This document shows, in pieces, positions 12,806-44,612 of a DNA stretch of 64,000 nucleotides; within the stretch, counting starts at the first letter, position 1, and every line of letters starts with the position of its first letter. The notes beneath the pieces are model-generated. The model searched no databases and was not told the DNA's origin. It was given only the letters and a program-made list of their open reading frames with translations. The stretch comes from an uncultured Candidatus Binatia bacterium. GTDB taxonomy: Bacteria; Desulfobacterota; Binatia; DP-6. The position numbers were made by a program, and so were the translations under genes. The DNA lies in NCBI GenBank assembly GCA_964432595.1, contig CAYSOF010000011.1, positions 47,757 to 111,756 on the forward strand, written 5' to 3'.

Positions 12806-13618
12806 TCATCGCGCGTCGGACGGCGCCGGCTTCTTCCCGCTGAGCGCGGCGACGAGGCTCTTCTCCGGCGCGTCCCAGTCCTCGTCCATGAGGCGGGCGA
12901 TCTCCTTGCCGTCGCGCCGGACGATGCCCGTCGGGAGCGCCGTCACGCGCGCCGCGTCGGCCTCGGGATCGGCGGTCTGCCCTTGCGGCACGCCGTGGAA
13001 CGACACCGTGAGCTTCGCGGGCTTGGCGTCTTCCAGCACGCGCACGAGACGCGGGATCACCTGCTCGCAGTGTGAGCACCAGCTGCCGAAGAACACGGTG
13101 AGCTCGGCGGGCTCCGTCTCGTCGCGCAGCGCTTTCAGCGCGCCGGCGTCCGGCGTGTAGGTCGCGGCGTTGCGGCGATAGTCCGGAATCGCCACCACGA
13201 GCTCGTCGAGCGTCTTGTTGCCGAGCACCGGCGGGCTCGGCGTGAGCGCCACGACGACGCCGTCGCGATCGATGACGAGGTTCGGCCCCTCGAAGCGGAT
13301 CGTCAGCAGATCCTCGACCGGCCCCGCCGTGTCGAAGCGCACGATCTGCGGATCCGCCGGATCGGGCGTCACCCGCTTCGGGTCGACGAGCCGTGCGCCG
13401 GCGGGTCCCGTCGTCACCAGCACGGGCCGCGGCAGCGCGAAGGTCGTCACGATGAACTGCCAGGGCGGGAGCACCGATCGGTACACGCGCGCGTTCGGGT
13501 CGACGCTGCCGCGCGCCTTCACCTGGAACTGCCCGGTGCTCGCGAACTGCACGGTGGCCGCGCGCGCCGGCGCGGCGAGCGTCGCGAGCAGCAGGAGGAT
13601 CGGAACGATGCGCGTCAT
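12806..13618 (-). CDS. thioredoxin-like (TlpA/ResA-type) secreted thiol-disulfide oxidoreductase
   Basis: Signal peptide MTRIVPILLLLATLAAPARA. CxxC active site in FFGSWCSHCEQVIP. ATG overlaps the stop of the upstream gene (ATGA). Confidence 0.7.
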   Translation of the reverse strand: MTRIVPILLLLATLAAPARAATVQFASTGQFQVKARGSVDPNARVYRSVLPPWQFIVTTFALPRPVLVTTGPAGARLVDPKRVTPDPADPQIVRFDTAGPVEDLLTIRFEGPNLVIDRDGVVVALTPSPPVLGNKTLDELVVAIPDYRRNAATYTPDAGALKALRDETEPAELTVFFGSWCSHCEQVIPRLVRVLEDAKPAKLTVSFHGVPQGQTADPEADAARVTALPTGIVRRDGKEIARLMDEDWDAPEKSLVAALSGKKPAPSDAR

Positions 13619-14559
13619 GGGAGCTCTCCTCGGGCCATGCTGTCCAGCGCGGGGTCGGGGGGGAAGCCGGTCCAGGTCTCGACGATCCGGCCGTCGTCGA
13701 CGAGCGCGCTGCGCGGCAGTGTACGGTAGAGGGTGCGTAGCATTGCCGCGGGCGCACTGCGAACCTCGAAGGCCGGCCCGGCCGACCACATGAAAGCGGT
13801 CGCGAGCGCAGGGTCGTCGTCGGCGACGCCCCAGACGGTGGTGCCGCCGCCGGGGAGCTTCAGCCGCCCATTCAGCTCGGCGATGCGCACCGCCGCGTCC
13901 GGTGCCGCACGATCGAGGAGCAGCACGAGGTGCCGGCCGCTGCGCAGCTCGGGGACGACCTCGTCGAGCTTCGTCGTCGCGACCGTCGCGCCGGGCGCCA
14001 GCGCCGTCGCCTGGTCGTCGAGCGGCAAGGACGGGGCCGCGAGCGCGAGCGCTCCGCCGGCGACGGTGCCGAGCAGCGCCGGCAGCCAGCGCGTGCGGAC
14101 GGCCGCGGGACGGCCGAGCCAGGCGATGCCGGACAGGACGACGAAGACCGCGTCCTCGACGAGCGCCTGCTCGGGGGTCCGCTCGAGCAGCTGGCCGAAG
14201 CAGCCGCAGCTGCCCGCCGTCTCGGAGGGATGCGCCATCTGCCAGGCGACGATGCCGAGGAACGCGACGAACGTCGCGCTCGAAGCCGCGAGGACGACGG
14301 GATGGCGCCATCCGGCGAGCAGCGCCGCGCCGAGCCCGCCTTCGAACGCGATCGTCGCGACCGCCGCCGCATGCGCGAACGACGGCGACAGCGGCACGAG
14401 GTCGCCGATCTGCGTCGCGAACAGCGCCGGATCGAGCGCCTTCGCGTACGCGGCGACGAGCAGGACCAGGCCGAGGAGCCGCGCCGCGACGTCGCCCGCG
14501 ATCGCGGTCAGGCGGACACCGGCCGGCGGAGAGGTCGCACCGGCTCGTTGTGGCCGCAT
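13615..14559 (-). CDS. MauE/DoxX-like membrane protein with C-terminal thioredoxin-like domain
   Basis: Polytopic N-terminus with the MauE-type CGCFG motif (TAGSCGCFGQLLE). Soluble C-terminal domain lacks CxxC. Translationally coupled to the downstream Trx gene. Confidence 0.65.
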   Translation of the reverse strand: MRPQRAGATSPPAGVRLTAIAGDVAARLLGLVLLVAAYAKALDPALFATQIGDLVPLSPSFAHAAAVATIAFEGGLGAALLAGWRHPVVLAASSATFVAFLGIVAWQMAHPSETAGSCGCFGQLLERTPEQALVEDAVFVVLSGIAWLGRPAAVRTRWLPALLGTVAGGALALAAPSLPLDDQATALAPGATVATTKLDEVVPELRSGRHLVLLLDRAAPDAAVRIAELNGRLKLPGGGTTVWGVADDDPALATAFMWSAGPAFEVRSAPAAMLRTLYRTLPRSALVDDGRIVETWTGFPPDPALDSMARGELP

Positions 14560-14571
14560 CCCCCGACGCCG

Positions 14572-15201
14572 TCAACGCGACGCCGGATCCTCGAGCCCGA
14601 GCACGCCGACGGCGAACTGCGTGAGCACGTCCACGACCGTCTCGCGGTCGGTGTAACGCCCCTCGAGGTAGCCGCGGGCCAGGCATTCGGTCTGGGCGAT
14701 CATCGCGTCGGCGATCATCGCCAGGCGCTCGCGCGCCGCCGGCGTGTCCGTCGCGAGGCCGAGGCGCGCGAAGTCCTCGACCATGTCGGCGACCACGTCG
14801 GCGCGCAGCTGGAGCGCCATCGACCCGAAGGGCGAGTTCGGCTCGTACTGCTCGCGCAAGAACGCGTGCAGCAGCCCGGGGTGCTGCGTCCAGGTGTCGA
14901 CCGAGATGCGGAACGTCTCGCGGACGGCCTCGACGCCCTGCCCCTCGAGCACGCGCAGCCGCGCCTCGCGGAGCTTCACCCGCAGCGCGCCGATCTGCTC
15001 GGTGCCGAGCGTCCGCAGCAGCTCGTCCTTGTCGCGGAAGTGGACGTAGAAGGTGGGCTGCGCCACCCCCGCCGCGCGCGCCACGGCGCTCACCGACAGC
15101 CCGCCGTATCCGGATTCCGCCAGGATCCGCGCGCCTGCCTCGAGCAGACGGGTGCGGGTGATCGTCTTCGACTCCCCGCGGGTCAGGGTACGTTGCGGCA
15201 C
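14572..15201 (-). CDS. TetR-family transcriptional regulator
   Basis: HTH TRTRLLEAGARILAESGYGGLSVSAVARAAGVAQPTFYVHFRDKDEL. GTG start at 15201; the longer ATG-initiated ORF would overlap the divergent promoter. Divergent from the monooxygenase gene. Confidence 0.8.
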   Translation of the reverse strand: MPQRTLTRGESKTITRTRLLEAGARILAESGYGGLSVSAVARAAGVAQPTFYVHFRDKDELLRTLGTEQIGALRVKLREARLRVLEGQGVEAVRETFRISVDTWTQHPGLLHAFLREQYEPNSPFGSMALQLRADVVADMVEDFARLGLATDTPAARERLAMIADAMIAQTECLARGYLEGRYTDRETVVDVLTQFAVGVLGLEDPASR

Positions 15202-15207
15202 ACACGA

Positions 15208-15289
15208 CCGATAGCCGAATCGGCAACCGTTTCCAAGCTGCGTATCACGTAGCCGTTGACAGGGTTTTTCGCCGATAATAGTATCGGCG
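15208..15289. promoter_or_regulatory. divergent TetR/monooxygenase control region: two 6-4-6 inverted-repeat operators plus a sigma-70-like promoter
   Basis: CCGATA-gccg-AATCGG at 15208-15223 and CCGATA-atag-TATCGG at 15272-15287. TTGACA (15256-15261), 17 nt, TAGTAT (15279-15284). GGAGG RBS 4 nt before the ATG at 15305. Confidence 0.45.
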
Positions 15290-15304
15290 GCGACTGGAGG
15301 TCGC

Positions 15305-16813
15305 ATGGCTGAGTTTCCGATCGTGATCGTCGGCACCGGGTTCTCGGGCATCGCCATGGGCGTGTACCTGAAGCGCGCCGGCATCGACTCCTTCACCATC
15401 CTGGAAAAGGCCGACGACGTCGGCGGCACCTGGCGCGAGAACACGTATCCCGGCGCCGCCTGCGACGTGCCGTCCCACCTCTACTGCTTCTCCTTCGAGC
15501 CCAAGCCCGACTGGTCGCGCTCGTTCTCGCCGCAGCAGGAGATCCACGCCTACCTCCGGCACTGCGTCGACAAGTACGGCCTGCGTCCGCACCTCCGCTT
15601 CTCCAGCACGGTCGAAGGCGCCGAGTTCGACGAGCCGACCGGCACCTGGACGGTCCGCATCGCAGGCCGCGAGCCGATGCGGGCGCGGGCGCTGGTGCTC
15701 GGCAACGGCGCACTGCACGTCCCGTCGCTGCCCGACATCCCCGGGCTCGACGAGTTCCGCGGCACGCTGTTCCACTCCGCCGCCTGGAACCACGACGCCG
15801 ATCTCGCGGGGAAGCGCGTCGCCGTGGTCGGCACGGGCGCCAGCGCGATCCAGTTCGTCCCCGAGATCGCCCCGACGACCGGCCGCCTCCACGTCTTCCA
15901 GCGCACGCCGCCCTGGATCCTCCCGAAGCCCGATCGCCGCATGCGCCGCTGGGAGCAGGCGCTGTTCCGGCTCGCGCGCCCGCTGCACTGGCTGCACCGC
16001 GCGTGGATCTACTGGACGCTCGAGCTGCGGGCGATCGGCTTCGTCGTGAACCCGAAGCTGATGACGCTGCTGCAGCGGCTCGCGCGGAAGTTCATCGCCG
16101 ACAGCGTCGCCGATCCGGCGCTACGCACGAAGGTCACGCCCGACTACACGATGGGGTGCAAGCGCATCCTGCTCTCCAACGACTGGTACCCCGCGTTGCA
16201 GCGCGAGAACGTGGAGCTCGTCACCGACGGCATCGAGCGCATCACCGCGACGGGGGTACGCACGCGCGACGGCGTCGAGCGCCCGGTCGACGCGATCGTC
16301 TGCGGCACGGGCTTCATGGTCGGCGACTACCTGACCCGGCTCGCCATCGTGGGTCGCGGCGGGCGCACGCTGAGCCAGGCGATGGAGGCGCGCGAGGGCA
16401 ACTTCCTCGGCATCACGGTGCACGGCTTCCCGAACCTGTTCCTGCTGATGGGGCCCAACACCGGACTCGGCCACAACTCGATGATCTTCATGATCGAGGC
16501 GCAGGCGCGCTACGCGCTGCAGGGCATCGAGACGCTGCGCCGCCGGAGGCTCCGCTTCCTCGACGTCCGCGCGTCGGTTCAGAGCGGATTCACCGCACGG
16601 CTGCAGGAGAAGATGCAGCGCTCGGTCTGGAGCTCCGGCTGCCAGAGCTGGTACGCGGCCGACGGCTACAACGCGACGACGTGGCCGTACTTCACGTTCC
16701 AGTACTGGTGGCGGACCCGCCGGCTCGCCCTCGCGGACTACGAGGTCGCCCTGCCCGCGCCGGTGCGGGACGCGGCGCCGGTCGCCACGACCCGCCCCGT
16801 CATCGTCGGCTAG
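15305..16813 (+). CDS. flavin-containing / Baeyer-Villiger-type monooxygenase (FAD, NADPH)
   Basis: FAD GxGxxG (VIVGTGFSGIAMG). FMO motif FHSAAWNHD. NADPH GxGxxA (VAVVGTGASAIQ). 502 aa. Confidence 0.85.
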   Translation: MAEFPIVIVGTGFSGIAMGVYLKRAGIDSFTILEKADDVGGTWRENTYPGAACDVPSHLYCFSFEPKPDWSRSFSPQQEIHAYLRHCVDKYGLRPHLRFSSTVEGAEFDEPTGTWTVRIAGREPMRARALVLGNGALHVPSLPDIPGLDEFRGTLFHSAAWNHDADLAGKRVAVVGTGASAIQFVPEIAPTTGRLHVFQRTPPWILPKPDRRMRRWEQALFRLARPLHWLHRAWIYWTLELRAIGFVVNPKLMTLLQRLARKFIADSVADPALRTKVTPDYTMGCKRILLSNDWYPALQRENVELVTDGIERITATGVRTRDGVERPVDAIVCGTGFMVGDYLTRLAIVGRGGRTLSQAMEAREGNFLGITVHGFPNLFLLMGPNTGLGHNSMIFMIEAQARYALQGIETLRRRRLRFLDVRASVQSGFTARLQEKMQRSVWSSGCQSWYAADGYNATTWPYFTFQYWWRTRRLALADYEVALPAPVRDAAPVATTRPVIVG

Positions 16814-16816
16814 GAG

Positions 16817-16936
16817 ACCGACCCAAGACTTCGTCTCGGGTCGGGAGGGACGCGAGAGTGTAGCGTTCGCGGTCCGCGCGACCAGCATGCCGCGCCCTCG
16901 GTCCGTCTCCGACCCGAGACGAAGTCTTGGGTCGGT
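16817..16936. repeat. perfect 28-bp inverted repeat flanking a 64-nt spacer, between convergent stop codons
   Basis: Arm 1 accgacccaagacttcgtctcgggtcgg (16817-16844). Arm 2 is its exact reverse complement (16909-16936). Each arm and the spacer are themselves palindromic. Confidence 0.6.
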
Positions 16937-16938
16937 TC

Positions 16939-17865
16939 CTAGGGCAGCACCTTCCAGGCGCCGTCCGGCCCGCGCACGACGATCAGCCGCGGCTGGTAGA
17001 CCATCGCGAGCGCCATGCCGGCGCACATCTGCACGTCCTCGTCTTTCACCTTCTCGAACTGGCTCGGGTCGATGACGTAGAGGTGCTCGCCCTTGCCGCG
17101 CACCGAGACGGCCGCGGTGTCCGTCGTCGCGATCTCGACCGTGTCGGCCTTCGGCGCGCCGATGCGCACGCCGAGGTCGTACACCTTGTCGAGGCACTTC
17201 TCCTTCTTGAGGCGCGCGAGATCGAGGTTTTCCTGCGACCCGAGCGCCGCGTAGACGCCGGCGAAGTCGGGTTTGAACCAGCTCGCCCGCTCGGCGACGA
17301 GCGCGAGGATCTGCCGCTTGTCGTCGTCGGTGAGGGACGTCACCGGCGGGTCGTCGTGCCACGGCTGCTTCTTCGCGAAGTCGGCCTGGAAGTCCTTCGT
17401 CAGGACGATCCTGCCCTTCGCGTCCTTGTTCTCGACGCCCTCGTTCGCCTGATTCGTGGCGCGACCGCCGTCCGGACGATCCTCTTCCGTCACCGTGTCG
17501 GTGACCTCCGCCCAGCGCAGCTGCGCCTTGTAGGGCGTCGCGGCCTTCGGCTCGAACTCGATGCGGAACGTGTTCTTTCCCGGACGCAGGATCGCGCCGA
17601 GCGACTCGGTCGGCAGCCACACCGACGGCCCGACCTCGCGCTCGTCGAACATGACGGGCACCTCCTCCGATGCGATCGGCTGCGCCGCGACGAAGATGCC
17701 GTTCACGTAGACCGTCGCCGTGCCCGCGACCGTCTGCACGTGGTCGTTCTTCGTGTCCCCCGTGTACGGCGTGAACTTGAACTCGACGTTCAGCACCTTG
17801 CCCCAGCCGAGGCCCGGTACCGCCAGGGCCGCCACCACCAGAGCCGTCCGGATCGCCGTCCGCAT
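16939..17865 (-). CDS. secreted hypothetical protein
   Basis: Signal peptide MRTAIRTALVVAALAVPGLGWG. K/E/D-rich, ordinary composition. No family recognised. Confidence 0.6.
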   Translation of the reverse strand: MRTAIRTALVVAALAVPGLGWGKVLNVEFKFTPYTGDTKNDHVQTVAGTATVYVNGIFVAAQPIASEEVPVMFDEREVGPSVWLPTESLGAILRPGKNTFRIEFEPKAATPYKAQLRWAEVTDTVTEEDRPDGGRATNQANEGVENKDAKGRIVLTKDFQADFAKKQPWHDDPPVTSLTDDDKRQILALVAERASWFKPDFAGVYAALGSQENLDLARLKKEKCLDKVYDLGVRIGAPKADTVEIATTDTAAVSVRGKGEHLYVIDPSQFEKVKDEDVQMCAGMALAMVYQPRLIVVRGPDGAWKVLP

Positions 17866-43607: not shown

Positions 43608-44534
43608 ATGTCGCCCGCCACCGTGCCGCTCGCGACCGGGCTCGGCGTGTGGATCGGTGCCGCGCTGTACGTGCACTGGCGGGGCCGCGAGCGCTTGAGC
43701 TTCATGCGGCAGCTCGCCGATCACTCGACGCTGCTCGCGCCCTACAACGCGTTCGTCTACCTCTGCTCGGCCGTCCCCCGGCGTCCGCGGCTGGACGTCG
43801 ACGCGTTCCCCGAGCTGCGCGTGCTGCGGGAGAACTGGCAGACGATCCGCGACGAGGGCCTGGCGCTCCATGCCGCCGGCCACGTCCGCGTGGCGGAGCG
43901 GCACAACGACCTCGCGTTCAACTCGTTCTACAAGCGCGACTGGCGCCGCTTCTATCTGAAGTGGTACGGCCGCCCCCTGCCCTCCGCGACGTCGCTGTGT
44001 CCGCGCACGGTCGAGCTCCTCGCCCACACGCCGAGCGTGCACGCCGCGATGTTCACGATGCTCGCGCCGAAGAGCCACCTCGTGCGGCATCGCGACCCCT
44101 TCGCGGGCTCCGTACGCTTCCATCTCGGCCTGTCGACGCCGAACTCCGACGACTGCCGCATCTTGATCGACGGCGAGCCGTATCACTGGCGTGACGGCGA
44201 AGCGGTGGTCTTCGACGAGACCTACATCCACCGCGCCGAGAACCGTACCGACATGCCGCGGTTGATCCTGTTCTGCGACGTCGAGCGCCCGCTGCGCGGG
44301 CGTCTCGCCACCGCGATCAACCGGTTCGCGATCCATCGGGTGATGGGCATCACGGCGACGGCGAACGTCGACGGCGAGCCCGTGGGCATCGCCAACCGCG
44401 TGTTCGAGCGCGTGTACCACGTGCGCCTGCTCATGAAGCGCCTGCGCAAGCGCAGCCGCCCCCTCTACTACGCGCTGTCCTGGGGCACGAAGCTCGGCGT
44501 GGCGGCCCTGCTCGTCTGGCTCGCGCTCGGCTAG
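43608..44534 (+). CDS. aspartyl/asparaginyl beta-hydroxylase-family 2OG-Fe(II) oxygenase, membrane-anchored (LpxO/OlsC-like)
   Basis: N-terminal TM LATGLGVWIGAALYVHW. AspH-family core (LAPKSHLVRHRDPFAGSVRFHLGL...ETYIHRAEN). Confidence 0.8.
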   Translation: MSPATVPLATGLGVWIGAALYVHWRGRERLSFMRQLADHSTLLAPYNAFVYLCSAVPRRPRLDVDAFPELRVLRENWQTIRDEGLALHAAGHVRVAERHNDLAFNSFYKRDWRRFYLKWYGRPLPSATSLCPRTVELLAHTPSVHAAMFTMLAPKSHLVRHRDPFAGSVRFHLGLSTPNSDDCRILIDGEPYHWRDGEAVVFDETYIHRAENRTDMPRLILFCDVERPLRGRLATAINRFAIHRVMGITATANVDGEPVGIANRVFERVYHVRLLMKRLRKRSRPLYYALSWGTKLGVAALLVWLALG

Positions 44535-44612
44535 GGAGAGAGAGTCGCAGACCGCACAGCATGCCGTCTTTTTCGTTGACCGCCGAAAGCGGCCGACGGT
44601 ACGTATTCCGGG

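Follow-up and report, generated by a model that had tools for sequence, protein, structure and literature searches.

The question raised by this locus is what kind of sequence separates two convergent genes in the DNA of an uncultured Candidatus Binatia bacterium, where a perfect inverted repeat lies between the two stop codons. The window, as used here, is the whole stretch of 64,000 nucleotides that was analysed, with a GC content of 72%. The preliminary description of this DNA, made from the sequence alone, had proposed three options for the repeat, namely a bidirectional terminator, a REP/MITE-like mobile palindrome, or a structured RNA. The features to which the analysis refers are the following:

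13615-14571, - strand: MauE-family gene
14572-15480, - strand: TetR regulator
15305-16813, + strand: FMO-like flavin monooxygenase, 502 aa (Pfam FMO-like, Pyr_redox_3)
16811-16813, + strand: TAG stop codon of the monooxygenase, inside the CTAG at 16810-16813
16814-16938: full gap between the stop codons, 125 nt, of which 122 nt are missing in close relatives
16814-16816: outer flank GAG, from the monooxygenase stop to the left arm, which fits the weak family consensus TAG-GAG(A/C)GC outside the hairpin (position table of 92 ends)
16817-16844, no strand: left arm, ACCGACCCAAGACTTCGTCTCGGGTCGG
16818-16844, core 16820-16842: family hairpin in the left arm, CCGACCCAAGAC-TTC-GTCTCGGGTCGG
16845-16908: spacer, 64 nt, analysed by MAFFT alignment, profile matches, and a scan for internal motifs
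16909-16936: right arm, the exact reverse complement of the left, with the hairpin CCGACCCGAGAC-GAA-GTCTTGGGTCGG at 16909-16935
16937-16938: outer flank TC, from the right arm to the stop of the - strand gene
16941 to 16939, read on the - strand: TAG stop codon of the 308-aa gene, inside the CTAG at 16939-16942
16939-17865, - strand: conserved 308-aa protein with no Pfam domain

The inverted repeat in the window

The repeat proved to be as perfect as first described, with two 28-nt arms that are 100% complementary and lie 64 nt apart. The tight fit between the genes reported for it also holds, with 3 nt between the TAG of the monooxygenase and the left arm and 2 nt between the right arm and the opposite stop codon. 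When the window was scanned with the 27-mer of the arms, allowing up to 3 mismatches, only these two sites were found, the number expected from 100 shuffles being 0.

Folding of both strands, proposed as a check in the preliminary description, was carried out over positions 16800-16950 and gave one long hairpin on either strand (-106.8 and -102.3 kcal/mol; z of about -9.5), equalled by 0 of 200 shuffles. Its pairing extends outward, with an offset of 1 nt, into both of the CTAG tetranucleotides that carry the stop codons. Each arm alone forms a 12-bp stem with a 3-nt loop, the left one with an A.C mismatch and the right one with a G.T pair, with DNA folding energies of -9.8 and -12.0 kcal/mol, respectively. 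The nested self-complementarity pointed out earlier corresponds, in the arms, to these hairpins; in the spacer, it is real in the sequence but not remarkable taken alone, as the isolated 64 nt fold no better than chance (z -0.41; 69 of 200 shuffles as good).

A chance palindrome is excluded, both by the shuffles and by the existence of the repeat family described below. A structured small RNA is, like chance, scarcely credible here: the strong fold is the only point in its favour, whereas no Rfam 15 family was matched at threshold (the best model was MIR9657, a plant miRNA, with 21.6 bits against a gathering score of 53 and E = 0.59), no promoter-like site was found at the element, and the copy is a deletion derivative of a longer repeat. 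An integron attC site was rejected too, as the GTTRRRY core is missing and the neighbouring genes converge. Finally, the statement that no transposase lies nearby was borne out by the genes checked, which encode MauE, TetR, the FMO-like monooxygenase, the 308-aa protein, an alpha/beta hydrolase, and a sigma-54 activator.

A dispersed hairpin family and its anatomy

The check that settled the interpretation was the search for further copies of the arms that had also been suggested in the preliminary description. It was carried out as a GTDB scan, with one genome per species and the degenerate hairpin pattern GACCCRAGACNNNGTCTYGGGTC, and it detected the arm hairpin (C-GACCCRAGAC-NNN-GTCTYGGGTC-G) in at least 112 stretches of other genomes, corresponding to ~20 soil MAGs among the matches listed. 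Three MAGs contained at least 20 stretches each, these copy numbers being lower bounds. Nearly all of the listed matches came from GC-rich soil or sediment MAGs with Candidatus Binatia, Deltaproteobacteria, Thermodesulfobacteriota, or Myxococcota labels, and several of the hairpin-bearing MAGs showed 70-75% nucleotide identity to the window in coding regions. Two AT-rich matches, from one Saccharibacteria MAG and one Oligoflexia MAG, were chance matches. The window copy itself matched copies in 79 loci, at 71-97% identity across 35-145 nt. In its own genome, one doublet was seen within 64 kb, and the hairpin pattern gave 0 matches in IMG/VR viral contigs. Among the papers covered by a full-text literature search, there was no description of this hairpin family and none tied Binatia to REP-type repeats.

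With a relaxed pattern, 167 hairpins were identified in the at least 112 listed loci, plus 2 in the window. Inverted pairs of hairpins made up 46 elements (45 in the loci and the one in the window), with the hairpins 60-262 nt apart from start to start, most often 249-262. The remaining hairpins were solo or had a degenerate partner (e.g., L018), and truncated and solo copies were common. A MAFFT alignment of 17 elements of subfamily A showed a full length of ~295 nt with no ORF, in which an outer flank is followed by the hairpin, a CGAGCGTGTGGCG box, a second hairpin (CCGGC-GAA-GCCGG), and a variable centre, and then by the mirror image of these parts; likeness between the two ends of this subfamily reaches well past the hairpin. 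The internal hairpin, CCGGC-GAA/AAA-GCCGG, is found on each side of the centre in full-length members, e.g., L016:5717-5988 and L011:4264-4537, with 85 occurrences in 61 loci and none in the 64-kb window. Other subfamilies showed different interiors around the same hairpin. The outer flank follows only a weak consensus, TAGGAG(A/C)GC (92 element ends), and the only strictly conserved module of the family is the hairpin with its closing C-G pair (137 of 141 hairpins), with loops that vary freely.

The window copy aligned to ~90 nt at the left and ~40 nt at the right end of the full-length consensus, with the middle missing. In its spacer, the inner left segment of a full-length member (GGGAGGGACGCGAGAGTGTAGCG...GACCAGCATGCCGCG) is fused to the final ~14 nt ahead of the right hairpin. 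A search with the family profile (nhmmer) matched each half of the copy with E of about 2e-12 and gave no other match in the window. Because alignment and profile both match the two ends while the middle is absent, the window copy is a short, internally deleted member of the family. Other short members are L062, L099, L026, and L023.

A different short form was found in CAMYLJ01, a MAG labelled Myxococcota, at L042:5150-5230, L089:5635-5715, and L093:7444-7524. In this composite, a CTAG is followed by the family hairpin, a different hairpin (GGAGCCC-TTCG-GGGCTCC), and another CTAG, so the hairpin module is found joined to other modules in a different lineage.

The stems of the family also carry a record of paired changes. 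At the variable stem position, left free in the search pattern, 51 hairpins had an A-T pair, 82 a G-C pair, and 8 were mixed, a split that is partly an effect of the subfamilies. Among the hairpins that deviate from the pattern, variants with two substitutions (18) outnumber those with one (8), and 12 of the 18 keep all 10 Watson-Crick pairs, with compensatory changes at several stem positions (GCCCC...GGGGC, GGCCC...GGGCC, GAGCC...GGCTC, GAACC...GGTTC, and CGTGAC...GTCACG). At the level of sequence comparison, the stem is shown to have been kept paired through compensatory changes. Such covariation fits recognition of a folded single strand, of DNA or RNA, and is just as compatible with a dimer binding a symmetric double-stranded site.

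Position at gene ends and presence/absence in relatives

The neighbours of the hairpins were called with a simple GC3-based gene caller, and 87 of the 167 hairpins (52%) were found 12 nt or less from a called stop codon, most often at 6 nt, compared with 0.9% of random positions. The elements (46) with both neighbours called were located between convergent genes in 29 cases and tandem genes in 17, and none was between divergent genes; among the background gene pairs of the same loci, 25% were convergent and 15% divergent. The adjacent stop codons were TAG in 60%, TAA in 18%, and TGA in 22% of the cases, the values for other called genes being 27%, 3%, and 70%, respectively. This position at gene 3′ ends, in convergent or tandem arrangement, is exactly the pattern published for REPs, where most of those between convergent genes have fewer than 20 bp separating them from each ORF (Di Nocera et al. 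2013, PMC3733652).

In the case of L081 (3480-3700), the upstream ORF no longer has a stop codon of its own, and its frame continues for ~50 codons inside the element; the orthologue of this ORF in L061 (4880-4970) has no element and ends with a TGA a few codons later. This is an example of a repeat changing the C-terminus of a protein.

The comparison with close relatives was carried out at the protein level and by gene coordinates. The two proteins flanking the repeat in the window are identical to database entries P0122 and P0247, although a separate look-up of the exact monooxygenase sequence gave no entry. In relatives, the identities are 90% and 93% for the 308-aa protein and 95% for the representative of the monooxygenase cluster. 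Three contigs of JGI metagenome 3300078620 contained the same convergent pair with the genes only 3 nt apart (1491/1495, 1608/1612, and 1889/1893). The C-terminus of the monooxygenase has the same length in the window and in the element-free relatives P0126 and P0246 (...TRPV(T/I)VG), and the 308-aa protein ends at the same final proline in the window (...WKVLP) and in the relatives. Because the gap measures 125 nt in the window and 3 nt in the relatives while the protein ends are the same, the window carries an insertion of 122 nt, close to the 120 nt of the repeat unit; the comparison is one of gene coordinates and protein ends. An insertion in the lineage of the window is a simpler reading than a precise loss in the ancestor of the relatives. 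Gain or loss, mobile or unstable repeat DNA behaves in this way.

As the relatives do without it, the element is not needed by the two flanking genes. Other orthologous comparisons among the fetched loci, at 75-82% identity, were too diverged to place the ends of elements, and L116, L117, L120, and L121 were rejected as empty sites, as they show a different gene order, with MauE downstream. Elements were also detected at orthologous sites of different species (L045/L083 and L009/L072), so some copies must be old.

The position at gene ends could also be expected of a host regulatory element, that is, a bidirectional terminator or an mRNA 3′-end stabiliser selected at convergent ends, the copies of which would resemble each other by function and not by mobility. 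As in intrinsic bidirectional terminators, a GC-rich hairpin lies between convergent genes and is the same on both strands; it is very stable, it stands a few nucleotides from both stop codons, the family is absent from divergent (promoter) regions, compensatory changes conserve its stem, and copies have been retained at orthologous sites across species, as in the two pairs above. In contrast to such terminators, no T/U tract follows the stem: a terminator scan found no site at the element, where TCCTAGGG comes after the stem on the + strand and CTCCTAGCC on the - strand. In addition, the hairpin in the window has ~60 pairs, far beyond what termination needs, and the element is repeated across the genome with an identity between copies that spans the loop-flanking and inner segments beyond the stem, which argues for common descent. 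Truncated and solo copies are common, and in close relatives this gene pair persists without the element, its two genes 3 nt apart. We regard a regulatory origin as quite unlikely, since the existence of relatives without the element and the shared descent of the copies mean that a terminator or stabiliser role cannot be where the element came from. As a consequence of a ~60-bp GC stem placed at two 3′ ends, such a role is plausible.

Some further sites were of interest. At L053:5655-5700 (reverse strand), a gene has its convergent neighbour 3 nt away (TGA-ggc-TCA) with no element between them, the same tight arrangement as in the relatives of the window, and L013 (100-180), which shares this gene, has an element beside its stop codon. 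In addition, the gene beside a full element in MAG CAWFFN01 (L018:3990-4300) has an orthologue in the window with 75% nucleotide identity. The equivalent site of the window (44531-44560, - strand) shows no hairpin, although gactctctctccCTAg abuts the stop codon there and resembles the outer end of the family, GCTCTCCTAG; it may be a remnant of an element or a coincidence. Finally, the Logan contig L119 (run ERR2586217) does not differ from the window over the junction and breaks off within the element (L119:1428-1502), which is consistent with assemblers stopping at a palindromic repeat.

Probable mobility and the search for an enzyme

The presence of many copies in many genomes, the presence/absence difference between close relatives, and the REP-like position at gene 3′ ends together support the mobile palindrome among the options first proposed; the structured RNA fell away with the missing Rfam match and the nature of the copy as a truncated repeat. 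The description of the feature with the most support is that of a nonautonomous palindromic repeat, of REP/REPIN or MITE type. More specifically, we consider, with a probability of about 0.7, that it is a copy of a dispersed, non-coding, REPIN-like palindromic family of Binatia-type soil bacteria, in an internally deleted form of a ~295-nt element.

In a REPIN-like element, the two inverted REP-type hairpins (C-GACCCRAGAC-NNN-GTCTYGGGTC-G) and their spacer could fold in either of two ways, into a single long hairpin or into a clover of small ones. The element would spread, or would once have spread, as selfish DNA by means of a hairpin-recognising enzyme encoded elsewhere in the genome, and copies would survive only where genes and promoters are left undisturbed, i.e., immediately downstream of stop codons. 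After insertion, the strong GC hairpin probably has the additional effect of stopping 3′ exonucleases or read-through from one of the two convergent genes into the other, which would be a by-product and not the reason for the element. A single-strand hairpin-recognising enzyme (HUH/RAYT-like) is somewhat more likely than a classical DDE transposase.

The likeness to REPs and REPINs is broad, as the properties of the family are those of a well-known class. Both have a short GC-rich palindromic unit (here a hairpin of 25-27 nt) in many extragenic copies, with units arranged in inverted pairs around a less conserved spacer, pairs that fold as a long hairpin or clover, compensatory changes in the stem, and common singlets and truncated forms; both place their copies within ~20 nt of convergent or tandem 3′ ends and avoid divergent regions. 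Long-hairpin or clover folds, compensatory changes, and singlets as remnants have all been described for REPINs (PMC3116915). The differences concern the foot of the stem, the palindrome, the spacing, the enzyme, and the host. Instead of a GTAG or CGTC at the foot of the stem, the Binatia family has a CTAG ~6-7 nt off in part of the copies only, and C and G directly flank its stem in 137 of 141 hairpins. Its stem is usually a perfect palindrome of 11-12 bp, whereas the E. coli RAYT needs an imperfect one (PMC3733652). Its paired hairpins are most often 249-262 nt apart, far more than the 71 nt of the Pseudomonas GI REPINs, to which the 91 nt of the window copy come close. No RAYT gene was found in the sampled loci, and the host is an uncultured phylum-level lineage. 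A GTAG or CGTC tag defines the known REP superfamilies, and the lack of such a tag, the perfect palindrome, and the absence of a RAYT from the loci sampled count against placing the family in any of them.

Bacterial MITEs, such as Correia/NEMIS, RUP, and ERIC, provide the other comparison. They are, like this family, non-coding and under 300 nt, with terminal inverted repeats, no transposase ORF, and a long hairpin fold; they are intergenic, their presence differs between relatives, and TA-containing flanks are enriched. The Binatia family differs from them in that it has no consistent target duplication, its outer ends are fuzzy, no parent IS was found in the loci sampled, and its sole strictly conserved part is the hairpin and not a linear terminal repeat. 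Bacterial MITEs with TA target duplication have been reviewed in Delihas 2011 (PMC3184786).

A classical MITE would here be an internally deleted IS derivative with terminal inverted repeats of ~45-90 nt, moved in trans by a TA- or CTAG-targeting DDE transposase (IS630/Tc1-mariner-like or IS5-like), for which TAG and TAA stop codons would be the main tolerated targets in a genome of 72% GC. We find this reading doubtful, although several observations agree with it: the ends of subfamily A are alike well beyond the hairpin, the full length is ~295 nt without an ORF, a CTAG stands at both ends of many copies, including the window copy, and close relatives differ by an insertion. Moreover, the adjacent stops are TAG or TAA in 78% of the cases, against 30% in other genes, an excess that could point to a TA-targeting DDE transposase. 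A CTAG or TA was found ~6-7 nt from the stem in about a third of the ends, and in 28 of 92 the distance between TA and hairpin was exactly 7 nt; however, this distance varies from 2 to 9 nt, and 26 of the 92 ends have no TA within 20 nt. Neither was a direct repeat found around the 120-nt perfect-repeat unit in the window. A simple TA duplication at a shared CTAG in the window locus was rejected, as it predicts overlapping stops and the relatives show a 3-nt gap; an imprecise-excision footprint in the relatives (TA-GGNCC-TA), which would leave exactly a 3-nt gap, is speculative. Finally, neither a transposase-bearing parent with these ends in the listed loci nor a copy in viral contigs was detected.

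The REPIN-like reading is preferred over the MITE because the hairpin is the sole module conserved across subfamilies, with free loops and covarying stems, because the outer boundaries are ill-defined, hairpins often occur singly or with spacers of variable length, and the context matches that of REPs, and because the one polymorphic site shows no evident target duplication. Another possibility, which we rate as unlikely, is an untagged, perfect-palindrome repeat outside the known REP superfamilies, with a Binatia enzyme that inserts it beside TAG/TAA stops or supplies them, so that the element would be a CTAG-bounded cassette flush with gene ends. An enzyme that targets or supplies stops would explain why 78% of the adjacent stops contain TA where TGA otherwise dominates.

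A search for the mobilising enzyme of the family was carried out in the same material. No RAYT or other transposase was found among the 626 ORFs of the at least 112 listed loci (~0.9 Mb), nor was an IS with matching terminal repeats and a transposase detected in these loci or in the viral contigs. Searches by tblastn and blastp with an approximate E. coli RayT query gave a best E of 0.2, a weak negative. Where hairpins lie 0.6-2.7 kb apart (L086, L002, and L092), ordinary genes (e.g., aldehyde dehydrogenase-like) or non-coding noise occupy the interval, and none of the small ORFs near multi-hairpin loci is a transposase. The protein clusters that recur across loci are metabolic paralogues (SDR, acyl-CoA dehydrogenase, enoyl-CoA hydratase, and similar) and include no transposase. 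A genome usually holds just one or a few copies of a RAYT or a parent IS, so a sample of ~0.9 Mb cannot exclude either.

Taken as a family, these repeats are probably selfish DNA of an ordinary kind in an unstudied group. Their definition for an uncultured and environmentally abundant lineage comprises a hairpin consensus, a full form of ~295 nt, and short and solo forms, and it can be used for masking repeats, for explaining contig breaks such as that of L119, and for avoiding miscalled C-terminal extensions such as that of L081. Presence/absence differences can serve as strain markers in soil metagenomes. As a REP-like family without the GTAG/CGTC tag, it also offers a case in which the enzyme would show whether untagged palindromes use RAYT-type enzymes or others. 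At the locus itself, the element may separate the 3′ ends of the two flanking genes.

The neighbourhood of the repeat showed a difference of its own. In the window (13615-17865) and its closest relatives, the TetR and FMO-like monooxygenase genes lie between the 308-aa gene and MauE, and in relatives at 77-79% identity (L116:3001-4913 and L120:3001-4968) MauE follows directly after the 308-aa gene, for which reason the TetR-FMO pair looks like a lineage-specific insertion, with the repeat at its edge. The 308-aa protein has more than 230 homologues with E of 1e-20 or below in soil metagenomes and a 70% homologue in the Binatia MAG CAYOIZ01; a metagenome scan with this protein gave only relatives of 47-51% from other taxa, which were uninformative. 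In some of the relatives, the 308-aa gene adjoins MauE and a gene for a very large Pro-kumamolisin/Big_1 protein.
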